A stretch of DNA of 64,000 nucleotides from Planctomycetes bacterium ADurb.Bin069 (lineage in GTDB: Bacteria > Planctomycetota > UBA8108 > UBA8890 > UBA8898), in assembly GCA_002070955.1 (NCBI GenBank), contig MWEK01000001.1:80103-144102 (forward strand). Reading direction: 5' to 3'. Position 1 is the first letter of the stretch, and each line of letters begins with the position of its first letter. Made by a program: the position numbers and the translations under genes. Shown piece by piece: positions 1,544-51,993 of the stretch. The notes under the pieces were generated by a model that worked only from the letters and a program-made list of their open reading frames with translations, was not told the DNA's origin and searched no databases.

Positions 1544-1580
1544 GGCGGAGACGCATACACAAGTACCGGAGGATACAGTA

Positions 1581-2522: not shown

Positions 2523-2594
2523 GGGGGCGCGACCCGCGCCGCGCCGGCGCGAGGGCGTTCGCCGTCCCGTTGGTGGAAACGAAGGAGGCCAGCC

Positions 2595-5933: not shown

Positions 5934-6110
5934 GCTTCATTCCTCCTTTTACGCCGCGGAAGCGCAGCAATTACAGCGCCGCACACGCATTCCGGCCGCA
6001 CTGTGGATCCTCGCCCACCCGCCGCAAAACCGGCCGCGACAAGGGCCGAGAACCAAACCGCGCGCAGCTTGCAGCAGGTGTGATTATTGTGCACCGCGTC
6101 TGAAATTGCG

Positions 6111-19625: not shown

Positions 19626-19705
19626 TGACCCTTGTCGCTCATGGGTCTGTTTTACGGCCGCCGTACGCTGTAGGCACGGCGGACGGCCCCCGCACTTGAG
19701 AGAGC

Positions 19706-31119: not shown

Positions 31120-32241
31120 TTACGGCGTCGATGGCGGACCTCCTCGGACGCTTTCCCAGGCCGCGAGCGTGCGTCGAAACGACGCGGCGGTCTCCCGCGC
31201 CGCCCGCACCTCGGCGCCCCGCGCGCCCGCGCGCCCGGCCAAGGCCGCCCGCAGCTCCGGCGCATCATACAGCTCCGCGATGGACTGCGCCAACGCGCGT
31301 CCGCCCACGGGCGGCGCCAGCAGCAACCCCTCGCGGCCCGAGCGCACCAATTCCCCGACTCCCCCCACCGCGGACGCAATCACCGGAAGCCCGCGGCAGA
31401 GCGCCTCCTGGACCACCAGCGGAGTTCCTTCGGATCTGCTGGGCAGGACGAGCACGTGGCTCGCATCCATCAGGGCCGCCACGCCGGCGGCGTCGAGATT
31501 CACGCGGACCTCGAAGCCGGCGCGCGCAAGCGCCGGCCCGAGCGGTCCGGCGCCGGCGCACACCCACCGCGCAAGCCGGCCGGACCCGAGCAGCCTCCGC
31601 GCGGCGATAAGCTCGCGCACGCCCTTGGCGGGGATGAAGTCGCCGCAGAACAGGATCGTGAACGGGCCGTCGGGACGCGGCGCCGGCGGCATGTTCTTGA
31701 ATACGGAAGCGACTCCCACCGGGAGATGCGCCACCGCGGCGGCACCGAGGGCCGCCGCCTTCCGACACAGGCTTCCCGACGCCGCGAACACCCCCGAGGC
31801 CCCCCGCACGACGGCCCGCGCCGCCCCGCGCAGAAAGCCGCCTCGGGCGGCGTACACTTCCAGGTCTGATCCGTGCGCCCAGGCGTACAGCGGAATCCCC
31901 AGCCTTCGCGCCGCCCAGAGCGCCGCCGGGCCCGAGGGCAGCACCCAGTGGACCAGCAGCGCGTCGGCCGGCCGGGCGCGTCCCTCGCGCACACACGCTC
32001 CGGCGGCCGACATGACATACAGCAGTTGCAGCACGCGCGACGGCGCGGCGGCCTTCAGGCGCACCACCGGCGCGGGAAAACCGACGGCCCCCTCGACTCC
32101 GCCGCGGGCGCCGGGCGCCACGACCCGGACGTCGAAGCCCTCCGCGCGCATCCCCTGCGTCAGAACGCGGATGAACCCGCCCGCACGGGGGAAACGCCGG
32201 CTAGGCCATGCGGCCGTCAGTGTCAAAAGCCTGCGGTGCAT
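31120..32241 (-). CDS. glycosyltransferase family 4 (GT-B fold)
   Basis: LPSRSEGTPLVVQEALCRGLPVIASAVGGVGELV (E-x7-E region). N-terminal GGFIRVLTQGMRAEGFDVRVVAP. Confidence 0.85.
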   Translation of the reverse strand: MHRRLLTLTAAWPSRRFPRAGGFIRVLTQGMRAEGFDVRVVAPGARGGVEGAVGFPAPVVRLKAAAPSRVLQLLYVMSAAGACVREGRARPADALLVHWVLPSGPAALWAARRLGIPLYAWAHGSDLEVYAARGGFLRGAARAVVRGASGVFAASGSLCRKAAALGAAAVAHLPVGVASVFKNMPPAPRPDGPFTILFCGDFIPAKGVRELIAARRLLGSGRLARWVCAGAGPLGPALARAGFEVRVNLDAAGVAALMDASHVLVLPSRSEGTPLVVQEALCRGLPVIASAVGGVGELVRSGREGLLLAPPVGGRALAQSIAELYDAPELRAALAGRAGARGAEVRAARETAASFRRTLAAWESVRGGPPSTP

Positions 32242-33007
32242 GCTGCTCCGGGCCGCCCTCGGCCGTACGCGGAGGAATCACGACCCCCAGGTGATCGCGG
32301 AGCACGTCAAGGAGCTCCCAGAAGTTGCCGACGATCCAGTCCGGAGCGTACCCGGCGCCCTTGCCGACCGAGGTGCTGCCGCGGATGACATGGACCGTCA
32401 GCATTCCAATGCGTTTGGCCGGCTCGATGTCCATGGCCGCGTTGTCGCCGACATACATGGATTCCGCCGGCTTGAGATTCAGATCCGAGCACGCGCGCTG
32501 ATACATCTTAATGTTCGGTTTGTTGATCCCGAGCTGATCGGAAATGAAGATGGCTCCGGGCGAAAGCAGCGGCGCGATTCTCAGGCGCACCAGCTTTTCG
32601 GCTTGCTTGTTGGCGAGGCCGGCGGTGATCACGCCGCGGATCAGTTCGGTCCGCGCCAGATCCCGCAGCACTTCGTAGGCATCTTCGTAGGGGCACAGAT
32701 ACCGGAACTTCGTGTCGTGGTACGCCGCCACGCCGGCGGCGACGATGATGGCGGGATTCACGCCGCGGTACAGGCGCCGGGGTAGCCGCTGGAGCAGTTG
32801 ATCGAAGTGGCGTTCGTAGTTGGAGGAGAACTCCTCGACGACCTCGATCAGTTCCGCAAGCAGCGCGGAAGGATCGGCGCGCAGCCCCGCCTTGACCATG
32901 GCCTCGACGCTGTTGCGCCGGGCCCGCAGGGCGAACTCGCTGGTCGAGTAAAGCGTATCATCCAGATCGAAGAAGATCGCGCGCAGCGCGGACACGGCCA
33001 TCTCCAC
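32201..33007 (-). CDS. HAD-superfamily (subfamily IA-like) hydrolase
   Basis: AIFFDLDDTLY (DxDxT), GVITAG, NKPN, YVGDNAAMDI. The 3' end overlaps the GT4 start by ~40 nt. Confidence 0.8.
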   Translation of the reverse strand: MEMAVSALRAIFFDLDDTLYSTSEFALRARRNSVEAMVKAGLRADPSALLAELIEVVEEFSSNYERHFDQLLQRLPRRLYRGVNPAIIVAAGVAAYHDTKFRYLCPYEDAYEVLRDLARTELIRGVITAGLANKQAEKLVRLRIAPLLSPGAIFISDQLGINKPNIKMYQRACSDLNLKPAESMYVGDNAAMDIEPAKRIGMLTVHVIRGSTSVGKGAGYAPDWIVGNFWELLDVLRDHLGVVIPPRTAEGGPEQHAPQAFDTDGRMA

Positions 33008-33103
33008 ATGGGCGGGCGCCGGCGGCGGCGCCCGCGCCGAAAGAAAATCATCCGGGAGGGCACCGGCGCCCCCCCGGATGATATCGGCGCCGAGCGCGAC
33101 GCG

Positions 33104-35770
33104 CTACTGACCGAAGCGCTCGATCTCCTCATGCCGGAGATCGACCAACTTCGCGGTGAGCAGGATGATCAGGCTGCGCCGCTCGCGCAGCTCGGCCTTG
33201 CGGCTCACGAGCAGGTTCAGCAGCGGGATGTCCCCGATAATCGGGATCGAGGATTGGTACATGCGCTCCTCCAGGCTCCGGAAGCCGCCCAGGAGCACCG
33301 TGCCGCCGTCCGGGACGGTGACCGACGTCCACGTGCGCTGGATGGACATTTTCGGCAGCCCGATCGGGACCTGCATGGCGGCGGCCATGACCGTGCCGAG
33401 GTTAATGAGCACGGTGGAAATCACGCCGCCTATCAGGGTCGCGAGCGTCGGCTGGACGTCGATGGTGATGTACTTGCGGTCCGCGCTCACGCTCGGGCGC
33501 ACATCCAGCACCACGCCTTCCTCGTTCACGTGCACCACCGGGTCCGCCACTTCCGTAAGGGTGTACGTCGTGCCGCCGGACACCAGCTCGTAATCGGCGA
33601 TATACGATCGCTGTGTGATCACCGACACGTACACGCGCTGGCCGTTGTGCGCCGTGACCTCGGGCGCGATCACCGACTTGACCCCGCTCTCCTCTTGAAC
33701 CGCGCGCACGATGGCGTTGATCTGGTACGGATCCACCATGGTCAACTGCAAGCTCAAGCCGCTCAGTCCGCCGGGACCGCCGAAAATACGGTCGCCGCGA
33801 ATCAGGCTCGCGTAGCCGTCCAGGGTGTTCTGCAGGCGCCCGACCAACTCGGGGGGCTTGCCGTCCGCCTTTCTTCTCGCGATCGCTTCGATACTGTCGG
33901 TGAATCCCGGATCCTGCCCGCCCGTTCGGCTGTCGTGGATCCGGCCGTGGTACATGTTGAACCCGGTCGAGCTGCGCTGGCTGAGGTTGCGGTAGTCGAT
34001 GCCGATATCCTCCAGAAAATCGCTGGTGATATCCACGAAGCGCGCCTTGACCACCACGAAGAGATCGGAGTCCTGCCGCAGTTCCTCCAGCACGCGGGCC
34101 ACCCTCGCGTGCACCTCGGGGCTGGCTTCAACGAGGAGCTGCCCGCGGTGGATCTCGATGCGGTTGATCTCCCCGTCCCAGACGGAATCGCCGCCCGTGC
34201 TCTCTTGGACCAGCTTCTGAAGCTGCTCGGGCTCGAGCGTTTTGGATTCCTCGCCCTCGCTGAACTGGAAGCCCGTGCCGCCGGGCCCGCCGCCGGACTC
34301 GGATTCCTCGTCGGGAGATCTGATCTCGAGGCGCGGGCCGGGGAAATCCCTGATCTTGCTCAGGATGTCCGTCACCGTGTAGATCTTGAGGATGGCCAGG
34401 CCTCGCGCCCTCTCAGGCACCGTGATCGTCAGGACGTTGTTCCTGAAGGTGTAGGCCAGCCCCGTATTGAGCATCATCAGATCAAGCGCATCCTCGAGCT
34501 TCATCTGCGTGAGGTTGAGCTTGACCTTGGTCTCCTCGGGATCCACGTTCTTGTCGATGTGAATGTTGATCCCGGTGATCTTCTTAATGTAATCGATGGC
34601 ATCGGCGAGGGGCTTGTTGTCGAAGTCGATGGTGATCCGCGCGGTCGCCAGGCGCCGTTTGATCTCCCTGACCTCCTCGGACTCCTCGATGACGCCGATT
34701 TGCACGTCGGCCTCGCGCGCCCTGATAATGTCCCAGCGCTCCTCGCCGGGAAACTCGAAAACGCTCGAGGGGGGTTTGGCCGCATCCGCGAGCCCTTCCC
34801 AGGTCAGCTTCGCGTGCTCCTTGAGCGCCGCGTCGTGCTCCTGCTCCCAAAGGGTCCTGTCCTTCTTTCTGGAGTTCTTGAGAAGGGCCCGCGCCTGGAT
34901 CTGGCGCGGATTCTCCTTCAGGACCACTTCGCAGATCTGCATGCACTGCGTGTAATCCTGGCGGTGATAAGCTTCGCTCGCGGCCTCGACCAGCACCCTG
35001 ATACGCTCCCTCTTCTGTTGGTCGCGGAAGGCCGCATCCTTCGCGATCGCCGCCCGGATCGCCTCCTCTTGCTGTTCACGGGTTTCGCCCGCGCGCCGCC
35101 GCAGCAGATCGTTCGTCTCGCGCAGGAGCTCCTCCAGGCGCCTCTGGCGCCCTTGCGTCTCGGCCGAGGCCTCGAACAAAGCCAGGCGGGCTTTCCCCTG
35201 CTGGAGCATCAACTGGGCTTCCTGGAGCTGGTGCTCCCCCATGGCCTTCGCGGCATCCTCGATGAGGCGGTCGATTTCGTTCAGGCGCGCCTCGCGCTCG
35301 ACCTTCAATTCGGCGGTCCAGTCCTGCATGAAACTCCCGACGGACGCTTCGCGCTGGCCGAGCATCGTCTCGCACCGGCGCAGCTTGCTGAACGCTTCGT
35401 CGTTCTCGGGGTCGGCTTTGCGCGCCTGCTCGTAGAACTCCATTGCGGCCTTGTAATCCAACTCATCGTACTTTTTATCGCCGCGGAGGACGTACTGCGC
35501 CGCCAGTTGGCGGCTGATGCTCTTCTTCTCTTGGATCGCTTGGAGGATCTCGGCTTCGCCCTCCGCGGACCTTTCGGGCACGGCCGGCGCGGGCATGGGG
35601 GCTGCGGCGGGCGTCTCGGTCTCCCGGCGGCCCGGCTTCTCGTCGGTCTGCGCCGCCGCCGAACCCTCCTTCGAGATGTTGGTCCGCGCCGGGGGCGTCT
35701 TCTGCGGCTGCAGGCAGCCGGCGCCCGCGACGAGGGCTCCGATCGTAAGTACGGCAGTGAACCTTCTCAT
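33104..35770 (-). CDS. secretin-family outer-membrane channel (paralogue 2) with long N-terminal TPR/coiled-coil region
   Basis: ATG at 35770 follows AAGGAG. Signal peptide MRRFTAVLTIGALVAGAGC. N-domain RITIDFDNKPLADAIDYIKK. C-terminal secretin signature VPDGGTVLLGGF...IPIIGDIPLLNLLVSRK. Confidence 0.85.
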   Translation of the reverse strand: MRRFTAVLTIGALVAGAGCLQPQKTPPARTNISKEGSAAAQTDEKPGRRETETPAAAPMPAPAVPERSAEGEAEILQAIQEKKSISRQLAAQYVLRGDKKYDELDYKAAMEFYEQARKADPENDEAFSKLRRCETMLGQREASVGSFMQDWTAELKVEREARLNEIDRLIEDAAKAMGEHQLQEAQLMLQQGKARLALFEASAETQGRQRRLEELLRETNDLLRRRAGETREQQEEAIRAAIAKDAAFRDQQKRERIRVLVEAASEAYHRQDYTQCMQICEVVLKENPRQIQARALLKNSRKKDRTLWEQEHDAALKEHAKLTWEGLADAAKPPSSVFEFPGEERWDIIRAREADVQIGVIEESEEVREIKRRLATARITIDFDNKPLADAIDYIKKITGINIHIDKNVDPEETKVKLNLTQMKLEDALDLMMLNTGLAYTFRNNVLTITVPERARGLAILKIYTVTDILSKIRDFPGPRLEIRSPDEESESGGGPGGTGFQFSEGEESKTLEPEQLQKLVQESTGGDSVWDGEINRIEIHRGQLLVEASPEVHARVARVLEELRQDSDLFVVVKARFVDITSDFLEDIGIDYRNLSQRSSTGFNMYHGRIHDSRTGGQDPGFTDSIEAIARRKADGKPPELVGRLQNTLDGYASLIRGDRIFGGPGGLSGLSLQLTMVDPYQINAIVRAVQEESGVKSVIAPEVTAHNGQRVYVSVITQRSYIADYELVSGGTTYTLTEVADPVVHVNEEGVVLDVRPSVSADRKYITIDVQPTLATLIGGVISTVLINLGTVMAAAMQVPIGLPKMSIQRTWTSVTVPDGGTVLLGGFRSLEERMYQSSIPIIGDIPLLNLLVSRKAELRERRSLIILLTAKLVDLRHEEIERFGQ

Positions 35771-35897
35771 GCCCGTCTCCTTTGGATTGCTTCGTCCGTT
35801 CATATGCTTCTCGCAACGGTTCGCGCGCCGCGCGGGTGTTCGCCTTCGCGCGCCGCGACGCCGCCTCGTTCCTCCCCGCCTCCTCCTTATGCCCCGC

Positions 35898-38432
35898 TTA
35901 CGGGAACGTGAGCTTCTCTTCTTCCTTGACGATCACGATGTCCGACTTGATCAACACGTACAGGCTGCTGCGCAGCCGCGACTGGCCCTGCCGCCCGAAC
36001 AAGATGTTGAGAAGCGGGATCCGCTGAAGCAGCGGGATGCCGATGCTTTTGTCCTGCTCGATCACCTTCTTCAGGCCGCCCACGAGGACGGAGCCGCCGT
36101 CGGGAATGGTGATCGTCGTCTGAATCCGCGACAGCAGAATCACGGGCAACTCGACCTGTACCATGGTGAAGCCCTGGGCGAGGCTCAAGTCCGCGTACTT
36201 CGAATCGATATGCTTGGCCGTGGTGGGATTCACCTCAAGGATCACGAACTTGCGGTCGTGCGTCACCGTGGGGCGGATCTCGAGCAGCGCTCCCACACGA
36301 AACGAGCCGATCAGCGGGTTGATCACCGGGCTGACGCCGGTCTGGTTGACATCGACGTCCTTGATATACGCGATCTGGTCGATCACCATGGTGTGCGCCG
36401 TCTGGGAATCGAAGGCGAGGACGCGGGGGGCGCCCAGCGAGAGCATCTTCTGCTTCTTCTGGACCATGGAAAGGATGCCCTCGAGCTGGTAGTCCTCCAG
36501 CTTGTTGAACTGCAGCGCCATACCGCCCTGGGCCGTGATGTTGAACGGCGTGATTTCGGTGCCCATGACGCCGCTGTAGTCGGAAATGTTGGCGCCGATC
36601 ATCCCGTACCGCTCGCGCCGGTCGAGGAACACATACCCCGACGCCAGCGAGGTTCCCAGGCCGTTCACATCGGGAATCGGATACTCCGGCGTGCTCTCCA
36701 CCGTCCCGCCGATGTTGACGCCGATCTCCTCCAGCAGGTTGTCCTGGATGTCGATGAAACGGGCCTCGCTCGCCACCAGGACCCCGGACAGCTTGCGCAA
36801 GCTCGCCAGCAGGTCGCTGATCTTGCGATGATTCTCCAGGGACGTCCTGACGACAAGCTTGCCGGTTTGCAGCTCGGCGGTGCCGTTCTTGTCGTCCCCG
36901 CCGAGGATGCGTTTGCGAATCAGCTCGACCAACTGCTCGCCGGGAAGCCCGGTTCTGGCCGTTTCAGTCTGCTCCACATCCAGCGTGACGGCCCCGCCCT
37001 GCTCCTTCCCGCCCGCGAGGCTGACCGACAAGTCCGGCGCCGGATAGTCCGGATGCTGATTAGCGATGTCCTCGACGGAGTAGAAGGCCAGATGCATTTT
37101 CTCGGTCAGCGAGCTTCTCGGCCCGATAACCACGGCGCCGTTCTGAATCTGGTAGCCGTAGCCTTCGCCCACGGACTCCAGCACGATGTCCAGCACGTTC
37201 TTGAGCATGAGCCCCTGGACTTCCGGCAGGTTGACCTTCAGGTCCTCGGACTCCATGGCCTCGCGGGCGGCCTTGTTGGGCACGAAGCTGATGCCCGCGC
37301 CGACGCCCGGCCCCGCCAGTTGGCCCAGGTAATCGAGCACCTCTTGGAGCGGACGATCCTCGAAGCTGATCCGCGGAATCCTGGTGGTCTCCAGGCTTCT
37401 GCGCACTTCGCGGTTCGCGATGGGTTCTTCCGCCGCGACCTGCTCCTCGAGGGAGATGCGCTCCTCGCCCAGCTTTTCCCAAACCCTGCGCGGCGGAAAC
37501 TGGAAGATGTGGTGGTAGGACACCGTCGTCTCCATGATGCCGCGCAAGACGAGATCCCAGTTCCTCCGGGTCTCGCGCTCGATCTTGTCCATGGTGAACA
37601 GGTGCCGCAGATACCGCGCCCGGGCGCGGATGGCCTGGGCCTCGGCGTCGCGGGGATCGATCTCGAGCACCAGCAATGCCTGCTGCTCCGCCTTGTCGAA
37701 CCGGTTCTCCTGGAGGGCCTCCTCGGCCTGGGTCTTGTACAGTTTGATGCGGTTCTCGATGTACACCAACTCGCGGACGCGGTCGCCCTTGACGCGATCT
37801 CTGAGATCGGCCTCCAGCCGCCGCTGCTCCTCGGCCTTCTGATCGGCCCCTTTCCGCGCGCACGTGTCCATATGCGCCCGCGCGGCCTTGACCAGATCGG
37901 GCATGTTCAGGCTCCAGGGATAATGGCTGTCAATCTCCACCACGCGGGAGAATTTCTCGAGGGCCTGCTCGTACTTATTCTGGGCCATCAAGGCCTCGCC
38001 ATCGGCAAAGAGCCGCTTGAGTTGGGCCTGCGCCTGCTCGACGAGCAGGACTTGGTCATCTTCGATCTTCCGGATGGTCTCCCGCCGCTCGCCGACGAGG
38101 CGCCCCAAGAGGAACTGCACCTCGTCCAGCTCGACCTGCGCGGCGCTCAGCGTCGGATCCAGTCGGAGCGCCTCCTGGAGCTCCTTCTCCGCGAGTCCGT
38201 ATCGGAGCTTGTCCTTCAGCTCGCGAGCTTTTTCCAGGTGCCTGCGGGCGGTTTCCCGGCGCACCTCCACCGCCAACTTGGTCTCCGCGCTCACCGCCGG
38301 AATGTCGGTCGGCGCCGCGGGGTCGGGCGCCGCCTGCGCGACGGCGCTCCAGGCGAGCGCCGCCGCCAGCGCGATCGCCCGCCCGCCCGTCGGAAAGAAT
38401 CTTCCTCCGCCCAGAAGCTCATGTGCGTTCAT
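35898..38432 (-). CDS. secretin-family outer-membrane channel (paralogue 1) with long N-terminal TPR/coiled-coil region
   Basis: ATG at 38432. Signal-like AIALAAALAWSAVAQA. IPRISFEDRPLQEVLDYLGQ. C-terminal IPDGGSVLVGGL...IPLLQRIPLLNILFGRQ. Confidence 0.85.
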   Translation of the reverse strand: MNAHELLGGGRFFPTGGRAIALAAALAWSAVAQAAPDPAAPTDIPAVSAETKLAVEVRRETARRHLEKARELKDKLRYGLAEKELQEALRLDPTLSAAQVELDEVQFLLGRLVGERRETIRKIEDDQVLLVEQAQAQLKRLFADGEALMAQNKYEQALEKFSRVVEIDSHYPWSLNMPDLVKAARAHMDTCARKGADQKAEEQRRLEADLRDRVKGDRVRELVYIENRIKLYKTQAEEALQENRFDKAEQQALLVLEIDPRDAEAQAIRARARYLRHLFTMDKIERETRRNWDLVLRGIMETTVSYHHIFQFPPRRVWEKLGEERISLEEQVAAEEPIANREVRRSLETTRIPRISFEDRPLQEVLDYLGQLAGPGVGAGISFVPNKAAREAMESEDLKVNLPEVQGLMLKNVLDIVLESVGEGYGYQIQNGAVVIGPRSSLTEKMHLAFYSVEDIANQHPDYPAPDLSVSLAGGKEQGGAVTLDVEQTETARTGLPGEQLVELIRKRILGGDDKNGTAELQTGKLVVRTSLENHRKISDLLASLRKLSGVLVASEARFIDIQDNLLEEIGVNIGGTVESTPEYPIPDVNGLGTSLASGYVFLDRRERYGMIGANISDYSGVMGTEITPFNITAQGGMALQFNKLEDYQLEGILSMVQKKQKMLSLGAPRVLAFDSQTAHTMVIDQIAYIKDVDVNQTGVSPVINPLIGSFRVGALLEIRPTVTHDRKFVILEVNPTTAKHIDSKYADLSLAQGFTMVQVELPVILLSRIQTTITIPDGGSVLVGGLKKVIEQDKSIGIPLLQRIPLLNILFGRQGQSRLRSSLYVLIKSDIVIVKEEEKLTFP

Positions 38433-38518
38433 CGTCGCAACCTCTCTCCGGGACACGCGCCTCAAGAGCCCGTGCCATGCCGCTGTCTTCGCATTGGCGC
38501 CACAGGCGCGCTCTCCTT

Positions 38519-39757
38519 TTACCTGAAGGGACCGCCGCCGGCATCGTCCTCGGCGGCCCCGCCCGCTTCATCCTCCGCCGGCTCCTTCTCGGCTCCCGCC
38601 GGCTCCTCGGCCGGAGGCTCGTCGCCGGCCTCCCGGTCGGGCCCGGGCGCCTCGGAAGCCGCCTCCGCCGGAGGCGTTTCCTCCGGCGTCAAGGTCTCTT
38701 CGCCCTCCTCCTCCTGCGGCGCCGCGGGCAGCTCCCAGGCTTTGGGACACTCGATCGATTCCGGCACCCACACCCCCTGCGGAAGCTGGATCTCCCTGCG
38801 CGTGTCGATGTCCTTCAGCACCGCCACAAGGCCCTTCTCTCCCTGCTTGATGACGTTCAGGTAGTACCTCGTGCGCGGCAGGAGGTCCTTGTCCGCGTCC
38901 GGTTTGCGCATCAGTCCGAGCAGCTCTTCGCGCTTGATCATGGGCTCGGAGACGGGCGCGCCCGCCGCGTAGTCGTAGGCGTCGACTTTGAAGTACCCTT
39001 CTCCCGCGCCGGAAAGATCATCAGCGATCTTTCCCTGGACGAACATCACCCGCAGATCATCGGGGATGACGTAGCTGCCAAGATCGGCCTCGGGCGGCGC
39101 CGGCTCCCCGCTCGTTTTCGTGGGCCCCGAATCCGCCCGCCACTTCGATTTGCTCCGAGTCGCGGTGGTCGTCACCCGATAGGTGTAGCTTGAGCCCGCC
39201 TTCACATCGGCATCCACGCACGTGTAGACCTCCGTGCCATCCACATGGGGGATGGTCGCAACCACCCGCCACGCGGCGGCGCCGGCGGCGCGGCGTTCAA
39301 CCCGGGCCGTCGCGGCGCTGACCTCGCTCAGCTCGCCGAACCTGAAGGTGACCGTGGCGACGGGTTTCTTCTTCTCCGCATCCCGGGTTATGGCAACGCT
39401 GGTGATGGCGGGCTCGCCGTGCACGGAGTCTAAAGTCGCCGCACGGCTGTAGATGCGCACGACGGCCGGCTGAACTTCCATGGCGAAGGCCGTCCACGCC
39501 TCCTTCGGTATCGACGCTTTGTCAGAGCGCCGCGTGATGGCCTCCCTCGGATCGGGAGGGGCCTCCGCGGGCAGCAGCTCGGCATCCTTTGCGTGGTCGT
39601 TGATCAACTTCAGATGCTGCGCGATGCGGTCCTGGCTGGTCTTGATCTTGTCCTCGCCCGTCATGGTGACGGCGATCATAGCGACGATGATCGCCGCCAC
39701 GATGCCGAACGCGAGCCGGTCGCAATGGGCTGTAAGTCGCTCCTTAACCGACGCCAT
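38519..39757 (-). CDS. membrane-anchored hypothetical protein with Fn3-like domain and acidic Pro/Glu-rich tail (occupies the PilP position)
   Basis: 412 aa. N-terminal TM FGIVAAIIVAMIAVTM. A beta-rich segment ends in AGSSYTYRV. The C-terminal ~70 aa are E/P/A-rich. The call is positional only. Confidence 0.5.
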   Translation of the reverse strand: MASVKERLTAHCDRLAFGIVAAIIVAMIAVTMTGEDKIKTSQDRIAQHLKLINDHAKDAELLPAEAPPDPREAITRRSDKASIPKEAWTAFAMEVQPAVVRIYSRAATLDSVHGEPAITSVAITRDAEKKKPVATVTFRFGELSEVSAATARVERRAAGAAAWRVVATIPHVDGTEVYTCVDADVKAGSSYTYRVTTTATRSKSKWRADSGPTKTSGEPAPPEADLGSYVIPDDLRVMFVQGKIADDLSGAGEGYFKVDAYDYAAGAPVSEPMIKREELLGLMRKPDADKDLLPRTRYYLNVIKQGEKGLVAVLKDIDTRREIQLPQGVWVPESIECPKAWELPAAPQEEEGEETLTPEETPPAEAASEAPGPDREAGDEPPAEEPAGAEKEPAEDEAGGAAEDDAGGGPFR

Positions 39758-39779
39758 GCTTGCTCCTCACGCTCCTGCG

Positions 39780-40835
39780 TTACTGGGCGAATCCTTTGTA
39801 TTTCAACACGCTCAGGGTGAGCCGCATCGTGGCCGTGGGCAGCTTCAGCTCGAAGTCCAACGGCGCCCGCTTCGCATCGTCCAGCCTCGGGAACGGCTCC
39901 TCCGCCTTGTAGGACGCCTTGAGCAGCCGATCCTTCTGCTTGGCCAGCACACACTCCTCGACGACGAAGAACACCGGGTCATCGGCATCCGCGGCGCGCA
40001 GTTCCAAGGCGTGCAGGAACGAACCGAGGTCTTCGAACCGAATCTCGCCGGCCGCCGTCAACCGCACGCGCTCGTACAGGTCGCGCGCGTCGTACTCGGG
40101 CACGACGGCGGCCTCCGGCGTTTTGGGCGCGGCCGCGCCCCTTCTCCCGGTCCTGGCGGGGGGCGGCGGCTTGGATCCCGCCGGGGCCGACGCCTTCGGT
40201 TTCTCCTCGGCCGCCCTGGTCCCCTTCTTCTTCTCGAAAACGACCGACGTCAGTCCGCCCCACCCAGCCTCGGTCGCCGCCGTGACGAGCGCCGTCGTGA
40301 TGCGGCACATCTGCGCCGCCGCGATCAGGTCGGCTTCGTTGCTCGAGATCGTCGGGCTCAACGAAATCTTGGACTGCGACGCCTCGGGCGCCGCGGCCGC
40401 GTGGGCCGGATACACGCGCTTCACGTACTCGGCGCGCACATCGGAGTACTTCCGGTTCAGATCGTCCAGCGCCGTATTGAACGCGGAGCCGAACGCCGCG
40501 TCCTCATGCGCCGTGAACGTTTCGCCGCCCTTGACAAGCTGCAGGCGCGCGAGCTTCTCGGCCCGTTCGGCGTAGAACCGCTCGACGTCCGCAAGAATCT
40601 TCCGCAGCGTCTCCTGGAGGTCCGTGTCGGCCTCGAGTTTACGCTTCGTGGGAAGATCCTCGGGTTTCCGCTTGGCGTAGCCGGCCAGCACGCTTTCGTT
40701 CTTCGAGATCTCGCGCTGCAGGCTGTGATACTTGCTGATGCCCCAGCTCCAGGTGACGAAGTAGGCGAAGGCTCCGATCGCGGCGAGCATGGCGATCACG
40801 CCGACCAGGAATCCGTTCTTCTTCAAGCTCTCCAT
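39780..40835 (-). CDS. membrane-anchored coiled-coil protein, PilO-like / Amuc_1100-like by architecture
   Basis: 351 aa. N-terminal TM FLVGVIAMLAAIGAFAYFV, then a coiled coil, a Pro/Ala/Lys linker and a C-terminal alpha/beta domain ending TMRLTLSVLKYKGF. The layout resembles my recollection of Akkermansia Amuc_1100. Not verified. Confidence 0.45.
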   Translation of the reverse strand: MESLKKNGFLVGVIAMLAAIGAFAYFVTWSWGISKYHSLQREISKNESVLAGYAKRKPEDLPTKRKLEADTDLQETLRKILADVERFYAERAEKLARLQLVKGGETFTAHEDAAFGSAFNTALDDLNRKYSDVRAEYVKRVYPAHAAAAPEASQSKISLSPTISSNEADLIAAAQMCRITTALVTAATEAGWGGLTSVVFEKKKGTRAAEEKPKASAPAGSKPPPPARTGRRGAAAPKTPEAAVVPEYDARDLYERVRLTAAGEIRFEDLGSFLHALELRAADADDPVFFVVEECVLAKQKDRLLKASYKAEEPFPRLDDAKRAPLDFELKLPTATMRLTLSVLKYKGFAQ

Positions 40836-40841
40836 GACGAC

Positions 40842-42971
40842 CTACTCCTCGACGGCGCCGTCGGTCTCCTCCCCGGGAGAATCCGGCGGGAGCGCCTCCG
40901 GTTCGCCGGCATCCTCGTGAATCTCCGCCGGACCTCCCGCGGGCGATTCCTCGGGTTCCTCGGACGAGGCGCCCGCAGCGGCGGCCGCCGCCTTCTCGCT
41001 GACCGTCCACGTGAGACTGAACAGGTAGTACTTGTCTTCCTCGATCGCGACGCCCTCTCTGGCTCCCTGCGGCTCCCGCTTTTTCTTCTCTTGGTCCCGC
41101 AGGAACCTCGGATCGACGAGGAGCCAGTTCCGCGCGAATTGGCGGTCTTCCTCCGCCACGGGATCGGCGAGCGCCGTTTGATCCAACAGCTGGAGCCTCG
41201 GCGCCGACGTGATGTGCCCGGCGAGGGTACGATTCTTCTTCAGGGCCGCCGAAAGGGGCGCCACCACCACGGCATCCACGAAGCGACGGCTCTCGTCGGG
41301 AGTCTCGCGGGCCAGCACGGCGCCCGTCAGGGTGAAAACGTAGGCCAGCGGGGCCGGCGCGGACTTGGCCGCCTGGTCTTTGGCGGTGGTGGCAGCCCCG
41401 GTTCCCGGGCGCTCGGTTTCAACGCCCTTCAGCGACGCCTGGAGGGACAGCAACCAGGCCATCTCCTTGTGCACGGAAGCCATGCGCCTCAGGGCCTCGG
41501 CCTCGGCCTCGTTTTCGTCCTCCTGCTTGGCGATAAAGATCGTCCGCGCCCGCGGAGGCTCGGCGCCCAGCGGCGCGGTGACGCTGCCCGGCGTCTCGCT
41601 CCGGTAGGCGTTTTTCTCGATGGCGGCGAAGAGCTTGTTGACCTCGGCCAGGGATTGGGAGAAGTACGGGCGCTCCTGTCCGATCTGCGCGAGGGCCTCG
41701 ATCTTCGCCTTGAGCAGCGGAATGTCGCTCGTCTTCGCGAGCTGTTTGGCGGTGCCCTCGAGCTGCTTGACGATGTTGTCGCTCTTGTCGTTCGAGACGC
41801 GGGCGTTCTCGGCTTTCTTCGCGTAGGTCTGGCCGAGCACGACGAGCGCGCCGAGGAGGACGCCCCCGGCGATGAAAACCATCTTCCGCTTGCGGGTGAA
41901 CGCGAGCTGCACCCGCTGCTCGCGCGGCATGAGGTCGACGTTCGTGGCGGCCAGTCCCAGGCCCTGCAGCCCCGCGCCCAGCGCCGGCGCCAGCGACGAG
42001 ATTTGGGTCCTCAGCTCCGCCACATCGAGGCCATCCGCCGGCCGCATGCGGGCCAGCGCGGCCACGCGCTGCACCTTCCACCCGAGCCGCTCCTGGACGA
42101 CCTGGCCGAGCCCCAGCGTGAAGCTGCCCTGTCCAAGGAGGTACGCCGTTTCGAACTCGGTCGCGGCGATCTGGCGCCGGTAAAACGCCACCGACCGCTG
42201 CACCTCCGTGGTGAAGTCTCCGAGCACCTTCTGCAGCCCCGCGAAAATCTTGTCTTTCTGCGGGCTCTTGGCGGCCTGGCGCTTCACGCGCTCGGCCTCG
42301 GCGAAGGTCAGCCGGAAGCGCTGGCTCAGGTCGCGGGTGATCTGATTGCCGGAAAACGGGAGCGCACGGATCCAAAACGCGCCGTTGTCCACCAAGATCA
42401 GCGCGGTGTGCTCGGCGCCGACATCGAGGATCACGCTGGGCGCCTTCGGCCGCAACTCGTAAAGCACGAAATTGAGCAGCCCTAGGTCGCCGCAGATCAC
42501 CTGTTGGCCGCGGATCCCGTAACCGTCGAGTTCAAGCAAGAGATCGTCCACCGTCTCGCGCCGGGCGGCGAAGATGCCGACCTCCCGCTCCTGGCCGGCC
42601 GCGTAGTCGCGCGGCACGAGCTGCCAGTCCCAGACCACTTCCTGAATAGGGAAGGGGATCTGCTGCCGTGCTTCGAAGTTGACCAGTTCCTGGAGCTTCT
42701 TCTCATCGTCGGCGACGATCTTGATGAACCGCGGGAGAGTGTCCTGCCCCGGCAGGCAGACCACGAAGGGGTCGCGGGTCGAATTGCGGGAGGTGAAGAT
42801 CTGCAGGGCTTCCCGCGCGCCCCCGATGGAGTCGACGCCCTCCGGACCGATGTCGTATTCAATCCGCTCGGTCCCTTGGACAATCACTTGCATGCCGACG
42901 CGGCGCAAGTGAACCGCCTTGAGGGCGAACTTGCCGATATCGATGCTCCAGACCGCGCTGAAACCCGCCAT
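40842..42971 (-). CDS. pilM: PilM (actin-like ATPase fold) fused to a PilN-like TM segment and a large periplasmic extension
   Basis: ATG at 42971 follows GAGG. WSIDIGKFALKAV, ILDVGAEHTALILVDNG..IRALPFSGNQITRDL (PilM/FtsA-like). A TM segment near residue 400 (MVFIAGGVLLGALVVLGQ). About 300 further residues end in an acidic tail. Confidence 0.8.
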   Translation of the reverse strand: MAGFSAVWSIDIGKFALKAVHLRRVGMQVIVQGTERIEYDIGPEGVDSIGGAREALQIFTSRNSTRDPFVVCLPGQDTLPRFIKIVADDEKKLQELVNFEARQQIPFPIQEVVWDWQLVPRDYAAGQEREVGIFAARRETVDDLLLELDGYGIRGQQVICGDLGLLNFVLYELRPKAPSVILDVGAEHTALILVDNGAFWIRALPFSGNQITRDLSQRFRLTFAEAERVKRQAAKSPQKDKIFAGLQKVLGDFTTEVQRSVAFYRRQIAATEFETAYLLGQGSFTLGLGQVVQERLGWKVQRVAALARMRPADGLDVAELRTQISSLAPALGAGLQGLGLAATNVDLMPREQRVQLAFTRKRKMVFIAGGVLLGALVVLGQTYAKKAENARVSNDKSDNIVKQLEGTAKQLAKTSDIPLLKAKIEALAQIGQERPYFSQSLAEVNKLFAAIEKNAYRSETPGSVTAPLGAEPPRARTIFIAKQEDENEAEAEALRRMASVHKEMAWLLSLQASLKGVETERPGTGAATTAKDQAAKSAPAPLAYVFTLTGAVLARETPDESRRFVDAVVVAPLSAALKKNRTLAGHITSAPRLQLLDQTALADPVAEEDRQFARNWLLVDPRFLRDQEKKKREPQGAREGVAIEEDKYYLFSLTWTVSEKAAAAAAGASSEEPEESPAGGPAEIHEDAGEPEALPPDSPGEETDGAVEE

Positions 42972-43245
42972 GAGTACCTCGACTGCGTGGGCTTCGTTTC
43001 GCTCTCCGCCTTCGCGCGCCCGGCGCACGAAGGACATGGTCGCTCATTCGCCGGGCCGGTTGCTCGGTGCACAATCGCACCCCGGCGCAGCACACTCTAC
43101 GTCCGCGAGGGCAAGCATCGGGGAGGGACACAACAACTGATCATCCCAGCCGGACGCGCGGCATCGGGATCGAACCCATTGGGTTTCTCCTCCGTTACTT
43201 GCTTCTCGTAAACAATGTACTGCGGCTCGGTCAATACAGACTTCG

Positions 43246-43274
43246 ATTATAAGCCGTCGCCTCTTGCGGGTCAA
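43246..43274 (-). promoter_or_regulatory. sigma70-type promoter (TTGACC-17 nt-TATAAT) upstream of pilM
   Basis: The minus strand reads gcTTGACCcgcaagaggcgacggctTATAATcgaag. -35 at 43274..43269 and -10 at 43251..43246. This implies a ~270-nt leader. Confidence 0.6.
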
Positions 43275-43382
43275 GCGGGCAGCCGTATGGCCGCCCGCCG
43301 CGCGCGCGTAACTCCCGGCTCGGCCGGCAGCCTCGGAAATGCGCCCGAGGGAGCTTCCGCGAAGAGATCGATGGTTCCGTCA

Positions 43383-44114
43383 TCAGCGCGGTCCGAGGAT
43401 CGCCATGGCAGCCTGCAGGTCCTCCCAGGCTTTCCCCTTCTCTTCCGGCTTTCGCAGGAGATAGCTGGGATGGAAGGTGGGAACAACTTTTGCCGTCCCG
43501 TAGGCGTGGATGCGGCCCCTTACCCCGCCGATCGTCACCGCGCTCCCGAGCAGCCACCGCGCCGCGTGCGCGCCGAGCGGCACGATCACCTCGGGAGCGA
43601 GCAACGCGAGCTGGCGCCGCAGGTAGTCTCCGCAGGCCGCGATCTCGTCGGGCTCCGGCGACCGGTTTCCGGGCGGCCGGCACTTGAGGACATTGGCAAT
43701 GAATACTTGTTCACGCGTAAAACCCATCGCGGCGATCATGCGCGTAAGCAGCGCGCCGGCGCGGCCGACGAAGGGACGCCCTTCCCGGTCCTCGTCCGCT
43801 CCGGGCGCCTCGCCCACAAAGACGATGCGGGGGGCGCGCGCGCCTTCCCCCGGCACCACGCGGGTTCGCGAGGCCGCCAACTTGCACCGCGTGCATGCGG
43901 CCGCTTCGCGGGCAATGGCTTCGAGGGAATCGGAAGGCGCCCCGTCCGCGGGCGCCGGATCGGCGCGCTTCTCGGACGCCGCCGGGGGAACTTGCAGTCT
44001 GACGCGGCACCACGACCTTCCCGCCGCGTCCTCGGCCCACAATCTGTCGAGCAATCTGCGCGTCGCCATGCCTTGCACCGAACCTCGGGGGAGCGGCCGC
44101 CGAGCGCGGCTCAT
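43383..44114 (-). CDS. udg: uracil-DNA glycosylase, family 4
   Basis: CTRCKL, VFVGEAPGADEDREGRPFVGRAG, HPSYLLR. The ATG at 44114 overlaps the mtaB stop (ATGA). Confidence 0.85.
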   Translation of the reverse strand: MSRARRPLPRGSVQGMATRRLLDRLWAEDAAGRSWCRVRLQVPPAASEKRADPAPADGAPSDSLEAIAREAAACTRCKLAASRTRVVPGEGARAPRIVFVGEAPGADEDREGRPFVGRAGALLTRMIAAMGFTREQVFIANVLKCRPPGNRSPEPDEIAACGDYLRRQLALLAPEVIVPLGAHAARWLLGSAVTIGGVRGRIHAYGTAKVVPTFHPSYLLRKPEEKGKAWEDLQAAMAILGPR

Positions 44115-48609: not shown

Positions 48610-51600
48610 CTAATCGGAGCCCCAACTCCTGAGCACGACCTCCTGGTCTCGGTCGGCGAGGATCACCGCGAGCGGCGCGCTCCTGATTCCTCGTCCGGCC
48701 AGCGCCTGCAGCGTGTACGCGCCGGGAACGAGCCCCTCGAAGCGGAAGCGCCCCTCGCCGTCCGTTCGCGCGCGCGCCTGCTTCTCGGGGCCGCTCAGCG
48801 CGACGACGGCCCCCGCGGCCCGCGCGCCGTCGGGCAACACAACGCTGCCCGAAAGCGCGAGCCCCTTGGCAAGCTGCAACGCCACGGGCTCGGGGGGGGC
48901 GTCCTCGCGGACCGCCAGCGCCGGAGAGCGCGCCGCCGCGTAGCCGTCGTGGTGCGCCTCGATCGTGTATTCTCCCGGCGCAATTCCGCGCAAGGTGAAG
49001 GCGCCGTCCTTGTCGGAGACCCCTTGGCCGGCGGCAAGAAAGTCGAAGCCCTCCGCGCCTCTGCGATGCTCGCGGCCCGAGCCGCGTTCCGCGCCCATTT
49101 CACGATCCGCGTCGCGCGCCGGCGCCGCGCGCACGCGCGCGCCCTCGACCGGGGCACCCGCGGGCGACCGCACCGTCCCCCGGACCTCGACGCCCGGCTC
49201 CAGCACGATATCGATGCCGGCGACACGCGCCCCTTCCCCGACCCGGAGCCCCCGCAGCACGAACTCCGGAAACGCCTCGGATTCGACTCGCAGATCGTAG
49301 ACGCCGGGCGCGACGGCCTCGAGGAGAAACGCGCCGTCGGCTGCATCGAACACACGGGGCGCCTGCGGCCGCGCACCCGCGTCGCGCCCGCCGGAGAGCG
49401 TCATCCGCACCGGCCGCACCGGCGCCCGTCCCGGAAGGCCGCGCACGAAGCCGCTGAGCTCGCCGGGCAAAACGAGCGTGCACACCAGCGCCTCGTTCGA
49501 AACCACCGCGGCCCGCTCTCGAAACGGCAGGTAACCCTCCGCGCGGACCTCGATGGCGCAGCCCGCGCCGGGGCTCAGCCCCCCCGCCTCGAACCTTCCT
49601 TCCTGATCGCTGAACACGCGCCGCCTGAGCCCGGCGCCTGCCACCGCGACGGCGGCACCCACGACCGGCTCGCCCCGCGCATTCACGAGCTTCCCGCGCA
49701 TCCGCGCCTCCGCCCGCAGCGCGATCGCTAGGTCCTTGACCTCCCCCGCGGCCAACGCTGCCTCGGCGCGATAGGGGGCATACGGCGCCTGATCGATCCA
49801 GACGAGGCAGCGTCCCGCCTCCAAGCCCCCGATGCGCCAGGCGCCTTCCCGGTCCGTCACCCGCTGCCGCGCGCGGCTCCCGTCCCGCGCGGCCGGGCCG
49901 CCATCTTCGCGCCACCCCTGGCGCGCCTGCACGCGGATTCCCGCCAGTTTTCCGCCGTCCGGACCCACCACCGTCCCCTTGAGCACCGCCCCGGGCATCA
50001 TGACGATGTCCAGAGACGGCCCGTCGCGCGCCGGATCGCCGACGGTGAAGGCCGCGCTGGCCGCGGGCAGGTAGTCCGGGTGCGTTGCGCGCACCCGCGC
50101 GGCGGCCGCCGCGCTTCGAAGCGGCAGTTCCCAGGCCCCGTCGGCCGCCGACAGCACCGCTCGCCGCCCGCCGAAGGCCGCTCCGCCCGCCTCGCGGTTC
50201 CCGGCAAGCGCCAAGCTCGCGCCGGCGATGGGCTCTCCGTCCGCGCCGCGCACCTTCCCCCGCACGACTCCGGCCTTGCCGAGCACCACGGTGACGGCGG
50301 CATGCTCGCCCGGGACCAACGTGATTCTTCGATCGCCGGGAAGGCGGCCGGCGGCCTCCGCACTTAGCACATAGGCGCCCTCGGGCAGGCCGGCGAAGGC
50401 GAGCCTGCCGCGATCATCGGCCCGCGCGCTTCGGGGTCTTACCGCCCCTGGAAATCCCTTGCTCTTTTCCGACGCCGCATCCCCCGGACGGAGACTCACG
50501 AACGCCTCCGCCAGGGGACCGCCTTCTCCCCGCACCTCGACCGCGAGCATGGCGCCCCGCGCCAGAACCAGCTCCAGCGGGGTCGTTCCCGGCGCAACCC
50601 GCCTCACAAGCGGCGCGAAACCGTCGCCGGCGACCTGGAGCGTATAGGTCTCGGGGTACAGCGTCGTCAGGCGGAAGAAGCCCCGGTCGTCGCTCGTCGT
50701 CTCGATGCGGGGCACAACGGCGCCGTCGCGGGGCTTGATTCGCGCCGTGAGCGTCACCGCGGCGCCCGCCACCGGCGTTCGATCCGGCCCCAGGATCTTT
50801 CCGGCGAGCGGCAGCCCGCGGGCCAACTCGAACCTCTCCGGCGCGCGCATTGCCGCGGCGACGCGCACGCCCGGAAACACGGCCGTGACGAAATCCTCCC
50901 GGCCGACGATGGCGGTGTACGTGCCCTCGCGGAGATTCTCGATGGCGAAGGCGCCGCGCGCGTCAGTCTCTCCGCCCCAGCGCGTTGCAAAACGCTCCGG
51001 ACGCTGGTAAACCGCCAGGGACGATCGCAGCGCATCGCGCGCATCCTCGAAGGCGAGCGTGATCTCGGCGCCCGCCAGGCGCGCGCCCTTCTCGTCGGTC
51101 ACCTCGCCGTGCAGCACGGCGCCCGGCGGCAGCGTGAGGAGGAGGTCGTCGCAGGGAGCCTCGACGTCGAAGGCCGCGGCGCGGGCGTGCCCCTCCTTGA
51201 CGGCGACCAGGTCGTAGAACGCCGGCGCCGCGGCGGAGAAGGCGAACCTGCCGTCCGCTCCCGTCAACACGTCCTCGGGCGCCGCCGCGAGGGCGACCCG
51301 CAAGGCTTCGTCCGGCGGCGCGGCGGCGCCGGGAGCGCCTTCGACCCCCCCCGAGCCCCGGGCCCTTACGGCGGCGTTCGCCACGGCGAATCCGCGGGCA
51401 TCGACGACGCGGCCCGCGAGCTTCGCTCCGGGCGCCAGGGTGAGCACCGTGTCCACGGCGGCGTTCTCGGCGACGGCCAACACCGGACCGAGCCCCGGCG
51501 CATACGCGCCGCCGAACGCCGCCAGACGGCACGCCTCGCCTTCCACACCGTGAAAGGTGAAGCGCCCGTTGCGCTCCGTTGCGGTGCGCGCCCGGCTCCC

Positions 51601-51909: not shown

Positions 51910-51993
51910 AGGTCGCTTTCACCTCCTCTGCCTGAAACCCCGGCAAAGCCCCCCGGTGGCGGCCGGCCGCCGGGCCCGTGGCGCTCGCCGCCT

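Follow-up and report, generated by a model that had tools for sequence, protein, structure and literature searches.

A phylum-wide ordered pair of PilQ-class secretin genes beside a PilM-type platform suggests a composite trans-envelope machine in Planctomycetota

Secretins usually come as one gene whose product forms one homo-oligomeric pore for one system; the pores are detergent- and heat-stable rings of 12–15 subunits in the outer membrane. We analysed a 64-kb stretch of metagenome-derived DNA, ∼70% G+C, from Planctomycetes bacterium ADurb.Bin069 (contig MWEK01000001.1, positions 80,103 to 144,102; 'the window' below), in which two secretin genes lie head to tail behind a gene for a PilM-type protein. 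We call the products SecA (upstream paralogue) and SecB (downstream paralogue). Across the phylum the pair reappears in this order, with PilM on one side and usually a TolQR/ExbBD-type motor on the other, which suggests a composite trans-envelope machine. An envelope machine not yet described is a better reading of the evidence than a one-off, recent or decaying duplication. On balance we lean towards a model in which a conserved envelope machine of Planctomycetota has SecA and SecB as its two outer-membrane components, the uncertainty being mostly in the two-ring and functional parts of that model and not in its evolutionary and anatomical parts.

Third-position G+C and open reading frame (ORF) analysis identified five compact minus-strand genes at the locus, which, with the sites that bound and separate them, are as follows.

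43246..43274, minus strand: sigma-70-type promoter-like site, TTGACC-17-TATAAT (11/12), ∼210 nt upstream of the pilM-fusion start
43037..40842, minus strand: PilM-fusion, 731 amino acids, first gene of the unit
40835..39780, minus strand: bitopic protein of 351 amino acids, second gene
39757..38519, minus strand: bitopic FN3 protein of 412 amino acids, third gene
38432..35898, minus strand: SecA, upstream secretin paralogue, 844 amino acids from its ATG, fourth gene
35771..35897, minus strand: secA–secB spacer, 127 nt, with a G+C-rich hairpin and the secB Shine–Dalgarno sequence
35803 or 35770..33104, minus strand: SecB, downstream secretin paralogue, 899 or 888 amino acids, last gene
33047..33082, minus strand: terminator-like hairpin with a 16-bp stem (10 G-C pairs) and a T-rich tail, beginning 22 nt past the secB stop

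A preliminary description of the window had reported two head-to-tail secretin genes separated by 127 nt. Both ORFs were confirmed, and the spacer length is exact if SecB starts at its second ATG (35770, 888 amino acids), as it probably does; this ATG has an AAAGGAG Shine–Dalgarno sequence 6 nt upstream, and use of the first ATG would reduce the gap to 94 nt. The promoter-like site is the sole match of such quality between 32800 and 43500, where shuffled sequences predict 0.6, and is a consensus match only. With this site before pilM, the hairpin after secB, and no terminator-like site on the coding strand of the spacer, the five genes are marked out as a single predicted transcription unit, in which secA and secB would be co-transcribed with the PilM-type platform. 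Classical pilMNOPQ and gsp loci are different, as the preliminary description had recognized, because here two intact secretins share one unit with a PilM-type platform; no gsp genes were present in the window.

The nearest named relative of the locus is in the metagenome-assembled genome (MAG) 'Planctomycetes bacterium UBA4800' (L005), with 79–81% protein identity. An identical SecB sequence was present on 14 JGI metagenome contigs (the longest shown being 368 kb), with the same gene order in the four that were shown. The stretch 35760–35910, which takes in the spacer and short coding flanks and carries a G+C-rich inverted repeat, is 91% identical to its L005 equivalent, above our expectation given a synonymous divergence (dS) of 0.34–0.39 in the flanking genes. 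We do not claim a structured RNA element in the spacer, as its fold was no more stable than those of shuffled sequences (z 0.61).

Both proteins exceeded the gathering score of the Pfam Secretin family (PF00263; 27.5 bits), SecA at 85.5 bits (4e-24) and SecB at 72.3 bits (5e-20), and the peptide motifs quoted in the preliminary description were all found in the translations. The two are 24% identical over 830 columns (BLASTP, E 2e-61), essentially their full length; they are thus real, diverged paralogues, as first proposed, and such a pair is far beyond chance. Because SecA and SecB align end to end, with the ∼300-residue helical/TPR N-terminus included, that extension appears from the alignment to be part of the duplicated unit and not separately acquired by each copy.

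We then considered whether both copies are likely to function. Compared with the L005 orthologues, the ratio of non-synonymous to synonymous substitution rates (dN/dS) was 0.25 for SecA and 0.33 for SecB, and 0.16–0.17 in the secretin cores of both. Both reading frames are intact and keep all the invariant motifs of the family, so that, to judge from the sequences, neither paralogue is damaged and both appear to be under purifying selection. Decay or loss of expression of one copy is the generic expectation after duplication, and SecB does evolve almost neutrally over its signal peptide and linker, the first ∼100 residues. Nevertheless, the intact frames and motifs, the core dN/dS values and the retention of orthologues of each copy across dozens of divergent genomes rule out a pseudogene, the outcome that the preliminary description had seen as fatal to its proposal, and make a decaying or non-expressed duplicate highly improbable.

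The preliminary description had also proposed a survey of the taxonomic spread of tandem TPR-secretins. When one genome from each GTDB species was scanned with a degenerate pattern, 76 distinct loci emerged; nearly all were in Planctomycetota MAGs, and the cultured Engelhardtia mirabilis Pla133 was also among the carriers. At least two full-length secretin paralogues were present within 10 kb in 42 of the 49 informative Planctomycetota loci, and all full-length pairs were on the same strand. In a neighbour-joining (NJ) tree, position matched clade in every case: upstream copies fell in A1 or U2 and downstream copies in B1 or D2. The two sets of subtrees, upstream and downstream, mirrored each other. 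We conclude from this positional fidelity and mirroring that the pair appears to be ancient and conserved in its order; synteny favours a single origin.

In 21 loci, drawn from both major clades, the two secretins are separated by a block of ∼6 kb that encodes, in order, a secreted TPR protein of ∼950 amino acids, a second of ∼370 amino acids, a MotA/ExbB/TolQ-family protein and two ExbD/TolR-family proteins. The 6-kb spacer of one such locus, L014, encodes TPR proteins of 944 and 363 amino acids, a MotA_ExbB protein (1e-29) and two ExbD proteins (4e-18 and 3e-17); among NCBIfam models its motor proteins matched TolQ and TolR best and its TPR proteins YbgF/CpoB, all below cutoffs. The block genes are homologous in register between the clades (ExbB 44% identical), and the outer flanks are shared too, with radical-SAM and UDG genes on one side and HAD, GT and TPR genes on the other (reaching rplM and rpsI in clade 1). 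E. mirabilis Pla133 (L049) carries at least the upstream secretin and the TPR and ExbBD part. By parsimony, the ancestral cluster would have been PilM–bitopic–bitopic FN3, followed by secretin(U)–TPR–TPR–ExbB–ExbD–ExbD–secretin(D), and because both major clades have the block between their secretin genes we take the motor linkage to be ancestral. As relatives usually have the same ordered pair split by this block, the tight tandem in the window is probably a derived state, which would have arisen through loss or relocation of the five genes. An adjacent pair without the motor block was also found in eight loci (L005, L015, L028, L035, L037, L038, L060 and L068).

These arrangements bear on whether the two secretins work with the same inner-membrane partner, as in the earlier suggestion of two channels that share one platform. 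The split pair of the relatives makes that arrangement less likely, and two rings serving different inner-membrane modules are favoured. SecA and SecB might nonetheless be interchangeable homo-oligomeric exits for one platform, chosen according to conditions or to the fibre or substrate being handled, and in that case unconnected to any Tol/Exb motor in the window organism. The operon in the window, which joins a PilM-type platform to both secretins with no motor genes within 64 kb, is what this would lead one to expect, and the eight further loci with adjacent pairs and no motor block are in keeping with it. However, an order and a clade-specific placement that have persisted through deep divergence speak for roles that are distinct and non-redundant, the motor block separates the copies in members of both major clades, and purifying selection on the two copies is comparable; we consider interchangeable exits improbable.

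Several of the surveyed loci merit separate mention. An uncultured 'candidatus Brocadiaceae' MAG (L079, 4828–12475) contains three tandem secretin paralogues of the same family, with PilM before them and ExbB plus three ExbD genes after, and these branch outside the four main clades. A conserved gene of ∼620–650 codons without a family assignment ('f33') follows the ExbD genes in L031, L042, L056 and L059, and in L056 and L059 stands directly before the downstream secretin. A full planctomycete-type cluster is borne by L012 (QNYK01000063), which is labelled 'Bacillota bacterium', and L044, labelled 'Paracoccaceae bacterium', bears a planctomycete-type secretin that falls in clade U2. Because their secretins group with Planctomycetota sequences, both bin labels are probably mis-assignments.

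AlphaFold2 models gave SecA and SecB the same domain order: signal, disordered linker, helical module, STN/N0-like domain, N3-like domain, a disordered insertion of 70–110 residues and a beta-rich secretin core that ends in a C-terminal helix. The helical module, STN/N0-like domain, N3-like domain and core occupy residues 46–301, 351–457, 498–563 and 663–834 of SecA, and residues 81–341, 389–476, 512–593 and 708–888 of SecB. In both proteins the STN/N0-like fold is predicted as beta-alpha-beta-beta-alpha-beta-beta, together with the N3-like fold. SecB matches Pfam STN (PF07660; 36.4 bits, cutoff 28.4), while the N0 assignment in SecA comes from its alignment with SecB and the model alone. A Foldseek search with the SecB model gave V. 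cholerae PilQ, BfpB, InvG, PulD and GspD as top matches (E 1e-15 to 1e-9).

The helical modules, of ∼260–300 residues, consist of TPR-like hairpins among very long helices (64–67 and ∼40 residues, the former spanning ∼10 nm), and have a pLDDT of ∼85–93, against whole-model means of 64.6 and 66.1. Only generic TPR models were matched in Pfam (TPR_19; TPR_2, TPR_11 and TPR_1). A phmmer search with SecB residues 81–480 against 1.84 billion cluster representatives gave 388 matches at E ≤ 1e-10, and about half of the best 150 were proteins of 850–950 amino acids that aligned over the whole N-terminal module. Proteins with this module thus appear to form a moderately large, taxonomically restricted family. 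Other matches, among them P0028, P0032, P0033, P0038 and P0039 (300–1700 amino acids), were to the STN/N0-like part of SecB alone (query residues ∼290–400); these proteins, of which there are many, repeat this match three to eight times in tandem and are apparently built of STN-like repeats.

The two proteins differ at their extreme N-termini. SecB has a lipoprotein-type signal (…LVAGAG-C) followed by a disordered linker of ∼50 residues; the sequence MRRFTAVLTIGALVAGAG-C is lipobox-like, yet has Gly at position −3. The SecA signal looks by eye to be of the signal-peptidase-I type (AQA|AP), with neither lipobox nor Cys. A lipobox-type Cys, scored by motif or eye, is present in most downstream copies and mostly absent from the SecA clade, and is at least 90% conserved among 45 family representatives. 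In the second major clade both copies carry lipoboxes; in the window's clade the downstream copy alone does so.

This asymmetry is relevant to a further possibility, that SecA and SecB enter the same ring, either alternating or stacked, with the lipoprotein SecB piloting SecA. A lipobox kept only on the downstream copy would fit a dependence of SecA on SecB for targeting, the strict co-occurrence in fixed order with mirrored subtrees would suit a mixed ring, and so would the predicted co-transcription of the two genes in the window, which lie 127 nt apart without an intervening terminator. On the other hand, at 24% identity a shared ring would require co-evolution of the subunit interfaces, the second major clade has lipoboxes on both copies, most relatives place the two genes five genes apart and beside different inner-membrane modules, and there are three copies at L079 and a single copy at some loci. 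Nor did we find a paper on heteromeric secretins, and to our knowledge the solved secretin rings, such as those matched by SecB and by its family, each consist of one secretin species. We therefore regard a mixed ring as unlikely. The pair is itself a natural test case for whether secretins can mix in one ring, and for the workings of a pilotin-like module fused to the pore protein.

A profile built from the 45 family representatives was scored against solved structures. PilQ proteins scored highest (77–104 bits), followed by phage pIV (72), GspD (62–66), RcpA (56) and the type III secretion system (T3SS) secretins (31–33); the profile also matched the N0 domain of N. meningitidis PilQ (4ar0; 9e-10) and consensus TPR. 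Because the solved type IVa pilus (T4aP) PilQ proteins score highest, the secretin core appears to be PilQ-class and closest to type IVa PilQ. With individual models the scores fell below the cutoffs: 86.3 bits for SecB and 67.2 for SecA with TIGR02515 PilQ (cutoff 284.35). The two proteins scored 53.7 and 68.8 bits with TIGR02517 GspD (cutoff 351.35). Pfam Secretin_N (PF03958) was unmatched by either protein, and there was no Pfam match to AMIN at E ≤ 0.01 in either, the N-terminus being all-helical in both models.

The resemblance to the type IVa systems of Pseudomonas, Neisseria, Myxococcus and Vibrio thus lies in a core and N0 whose best-scoring solved relatives are theirs, and in a gene order in which PilM heads the operon, bitopic inner-membrane proteins follow, and the secretin comes after. 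The locus differs from PilMNOPQ in lacking AMIN, in having a PilM–transmembrane fusion and an FN3 protein in place of recognizable PilN, PilO and PilP, in fusing a pilotin-like TPR region to the secretin where PilQ systems have a separate PilF/PilW/Tgl lipoprotein, and in having two secretins.

Taken as a whole, the architecture appears closest to that of Amuc_1098 of Akkermansia, with which the comparison was made through an NCBIfam model and the published description. As in Amuc_1098, an N-terminal TPR/helical (BamD-like, 'pilotin-like') region and a secretin are joined in one chain of ∼800–900 amino acids, and the gene lies in a unit with a long Amuc_1101-type PilM. With the Amuc_1098_fam equivalog (NF042912; cutoff 750) SecB scored 87.2 bits and SecA 73.2, and the L014 copies 74 and 116, so that all four lie between 73 and 116 bits; all 45 representatives match (best E 8.6e-42), far under the cutoff. 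The alignment of SecA (181–572 against model positions 105–482) reaches into the N-terminal region, and that of the L014 downstream copy (248–910 against 108–797 of 805) is nearly end-to-end. When SecB, SecA or their alignment served as the query in word-indexed searches, only 8–15 homologues were obtained, none from Verrucomicrobia.

Amuc_1098, a 'PilQ' of ∼900 amino acids described in 2016, has an N-terminal BAM/TPR region that resembles pilotin proteins and a C-terminal secretin; it is the most abundant outer-membrane protein of A. muciniphila, localized there experimentally, and is conserved in Verrucomicrobia and Lentisphaera (PMC4960237). The adjoining genes Amuc_1099–1102 make up the MUL2 locus (PMC13174399), where the secretin lies by two uncharacterized genes and the long PilM (Amuc_1101), an order like that of pilM–351–412–secA. 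The TPR N-terminus, which the preliminary description had taken to set these secretins apart, is borne out by the helical/TPR module in both models and is not new: because the same fusion was described for Amuc_1098 (PMC4960237), the TPR–secretin fusion itself is already known in the Planctomycetes–Verrucomicrobia–Chlamydiae (PVC) group. Prior description of tandem TPR-secretins as a subfamily had been named as another way in which the proposal could fail; the single TPR-secretin has been described, and the paired arrangement was not found in the literature. One secretin is described at the MUL2 locus as against two ordered paralogues in the planctomycete loci, the Planctomycetota pair usually brackets a Tol/Exb-type motor block, and the window contains no Amuc_1102-like or other pilin gene. 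No paper describing the ordered secretin pair or its Tol/Exb-motor linkage was found in the searchable literature, and the composite two-secretin/PilM/Tol–Exb cluster is apparently undescribed.

The inner-membrane partners are consistent with a PilM-type platform. The PilM-fusion scored 90.4 bits with Pfam PilM_2 (PF11104; cutoff 27) and 122.5 bits with TIGR01175 pilM, just under the cutoff of 133. It has a cytoplasmic actin-like ATPase domain, one transmembrane (TM) helix (∼383–401, by hydropathy) and a periplasmic tail of ∼320 residues, a predicted topology that is GspL-like or PilM+PilN-like. The next two genes encode bitopic inner-membrane proteins, like PilN and PilO, one of which bears FN3. 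The 351-residue protein has an N-terminal TM helix (6–24) and a helical periplasmic part; it is a positional analogue of PilN/PilO/GspM, with no Pfam or NCBIfam family (the sole GspM match, E 0.006, is below cutoff), and jackhmmer found homologues at the same position in L005, L025, L045, L065 and L021.

The 412-residue protein has a TM helix (8–26); its periplasmic part contains an FN3-type beta-sandwich, and its tail is acidic and disordered. Its family profile (A5) matches FN3 structures (FN3con 6.6e-10), and 4 of the 16 family members match Pfam fn3; single-sequence PDB searches with this protein and the 351-residue protein gave no meaningful match, the FN3 being visible through the family profile only. 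The jackhmmer searches tied it to genes named 'up367' and 'f24', which lie ahead of the upstream secretin in the two major clades, and in both clades a gene of this family always stands directly before that secretin. The proposal that the helical modules replace PilP- or AMIN-type connectors is partly upheld by the lack of AMIN and of recognizable PilN, PilO or PilP, and by helices of 64–67 residues, long enough to act as struts.

With a lipobox-type Cys at the N-terminus of SecB and of most family members, the family resembles the liposecretins HxcQ, BfpB and TcpC, and Foldseek matches include BfpB (9u5s) and RcpA–TadD (8odn). Other systems have separate TPR lipoprotein pilotins, PilF, PilW, Tgl and TadD. 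In such TPR-pilotin/secretin pairs a ring of TPR lipoproteins targets and stabilizes the secretin, and the putatively lipid-anchored module of SecB may be likened to a version of these that works in cis. It differs from PilF and TadD in that the TPR module is covalently fused and has helices of 64–67 residues, and in that SecA lacks a lipid anchor. Neither SecA nor SecB matched any NCBIfam model of the PilW (TIGR02521) or TadD type, and the PDB and Foldseek matches of the N-terminal module were to consensus TPR, Hop and P58IPK, with none to pilotins; a pilotin-like role is thus an analogy and not a family membership.

The motor block invites comparison with Tol–Pal and TonB–ExbBD, since in relatives the pair brackets a MotA_ExbB protein, two ExbD/TolR proteins and two TPR proteins with YbgF-like repeats. 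The differences are that TolA, TonB, TolB and Pal were not identified, that every score falls short of its equivalog cutoff, and that the window lacks the block; furthermore, we know of no described Tol or Ton system with secretins as its outer-membrane partners. The comparison nevertheless raises the possibility of a non-pilus system, either Tol–Pal-like or for gliding and slime, in which TolQR-type-energized secretin-like proteins would act as outer-membrane anchors or polysaccharide nozzles on a substrate made through the downstream glycosyltransferases. The best matches of the motor proteins to TolQ/TolR and of the TPR proteins to YbgF/CpoB, although below cutoffs, would fit such a system, as would the HAD–GT2–GT4–TPR genes after the downstream secretin in many loci (HAD–GT4–methyltransferase–TPR in the window), and the radical-SAM-to-rpsI synteny suggests a core housekeeping locus. 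Secretins are reported as slime nozzles in cyanobacteria and myxobacteria (PMC12475490). Against this, PilM, a component of type IV filament platforms, is the first gene of the unit, the secretin core is nearest to T4aP PilQ, the closest named relatives come from an Akkermansia pilus-type locus, a terminator-like hairpin parts secB from the HAD and GT genes, and neither TolA, TolB nor Pal was seen. We consider a non-pilus system doubtful.

In the composite model that we prefer, each paralogue would form its own homo-oligomeric ring. The SecA-type ring would dock on the PilM/FN3 platform as the conduit for a type-IV-filament-like fibre, and the SecB-type ring would be coupled through TPR–TPR contacts to the Tol/Exb-type motor. 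The fused N-terminal module may act in cis both as pilotin and as periplasmic strut; that of SecB would hang from its lipid anchor in the outer membrane and run outside the periplasmic vestibule down to N0. By analogy with the Akkermansia MUL genes and the planctomycete fibre/crateriform model, the machine as a whole might capture and/or import macromolecules in a manner that depends on surface fibres.

A number of observations weigh against the composite model. Pfam searches of 20 further ORFs in the window revealed housekeeping genes or genes unrelated to pili, with no PilB, PilC, PilT or pilin among them, and a scan of the window for class III (pilin) signal motifs was empty; the fibre substrate is therefore read from PilM only. 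The lack of these genes is not unusual, as classical pilMNOPQ operons likewise contain no pilin, PilB/PilT or PilC. No homologue of ExbB, ExbD or the TPR-block genes was found in the window by tblastn, so the case for motor coupling of SecB comes from relatives of the window organism. The AlphaFold2 models are of medium quality (pTM 0.32–0.35), with unreliable relative placement of domains. SecA and SecB reach no curated cutoff for PilQ, MshL, GspD, SctC, HofQ or Amuc_1098, the PilM-fusion matches Amuc_1101_fam (4e-60) at 204 bits, below the cutoff of 650, and the 351- and 412-residue proteins match no PilN, PilO, PilP or GspC/M model. A single secretin was present in seven loci whose flanks extend 9 kb or more in both directions. 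The NJ topology, (A1,(B1,(D2,U2))), makes U2 and D2 sisters, and cross-scores between clade hidden Markov models were uninformative on one versus two duplications, A1 and D2 seemingly evolving faster. The TPR plus ExbB/ExbD gene content ascribed to Akkermansia MUL1 is corroborated only by Amuc_0546, which is listed as a 'biopolymer transporter' (PMC11480725).

Planctomycetes import whole polysaccharides into an enlarged periplasm (PMC12673574). A review of 2025 describes the players in uptake as still unknown, makes no mention of secretins, and cites the idea that pili emanating from crateriform structures are involved (PMC12673574). In Akkermansia, MUL genes, pilus genes among them, are needed for accumulation of mucin products inside the cell (PMC12418764; PMC13174399). 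A more specific reading would therefore make the conserved cluster pilM–x–FN3–secretinU–TPR–TPR–TolQ/ExbB–TolR/ExbD(x2)–secretinD the machinery of planctomycete fibre/crateriform uptake of macromolecules, and perhaps a fused counterpart of both Akkermansia MUL loci. One secretin would let a pilus-like fibre out, and the second would be a gated import pore, energized by the proton-motive force and working inward through the TPR-linked Tol/Ton-type motor; the window organism would be a variant with its motor genes elsewhere in the genome. We advance this reading very tentatively and think it improbable in its entirety. The cluster is, nevertheless, a concrete and genetically testable candidate for macromolecule uptake in planctomycetes, with E. 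mirabilis Pla133 as a cultured carrier.

The unit lies among housekeeping genes. Upstream are genes for an NMN-adenylyltransferase-like protein, RidA, a MiaB-type radical-SAM enzyme and UDG, and downstream are HAD, GT4 and methyltransferase genes, a TPR protein of 941 amino acids, RsmE, rplM and rpsI. The operon has a G+C content of 63–68%, compared with 70–73% in its flanks (window positions 32000–44000), and AT skew on the plus strand is strongly negative, at −0.12 to −0.26 over 34–42 kb. The low G+C prompted us to consider horizontal acquisition, which was ruled out because the locus is syntenic with its housekeeping flanks across the phylum. We believe that the A-bias of the coding strand probably stems from the Lys/Glu-rich helical proteins and not from a foreign origin. 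Over deep Planctomycetota divergence the syntenic neighbourhood comprises the radical-SAM and UDG genes, the secretin cluster, HAD, GT2, GT4, the large TPR protein, a spermidine-synthase-like protein of 775 amino acids, rplM and rpsI; synteny over such divergence suggests that the region from radical-SAM to rpsI is a core chromosomal locus.

Elsewhere in the window, a Ras/Arf-like GTPase (383 amino acids; Pfam Arf, Gtr1_RagA) and a Roadblock/LC7 protein (193 amino acids) are encoded one after the other on the plus strand (1371–3101) and constitute an MglA/MglB-like polarity pair; a HEAT-repeat protein of 757 amino acids follows on the opposite strand (3666–5936, minus). Two other proteins are likely to be surface-located or secreted, one of 1102 amino acids with at least eight CarboxypepD_reg/transthyretin-like repeats (48613–51918, minus strand) and one of 705 amino acids with a C-terminal dockerin domain (19700–21814, plus strand).

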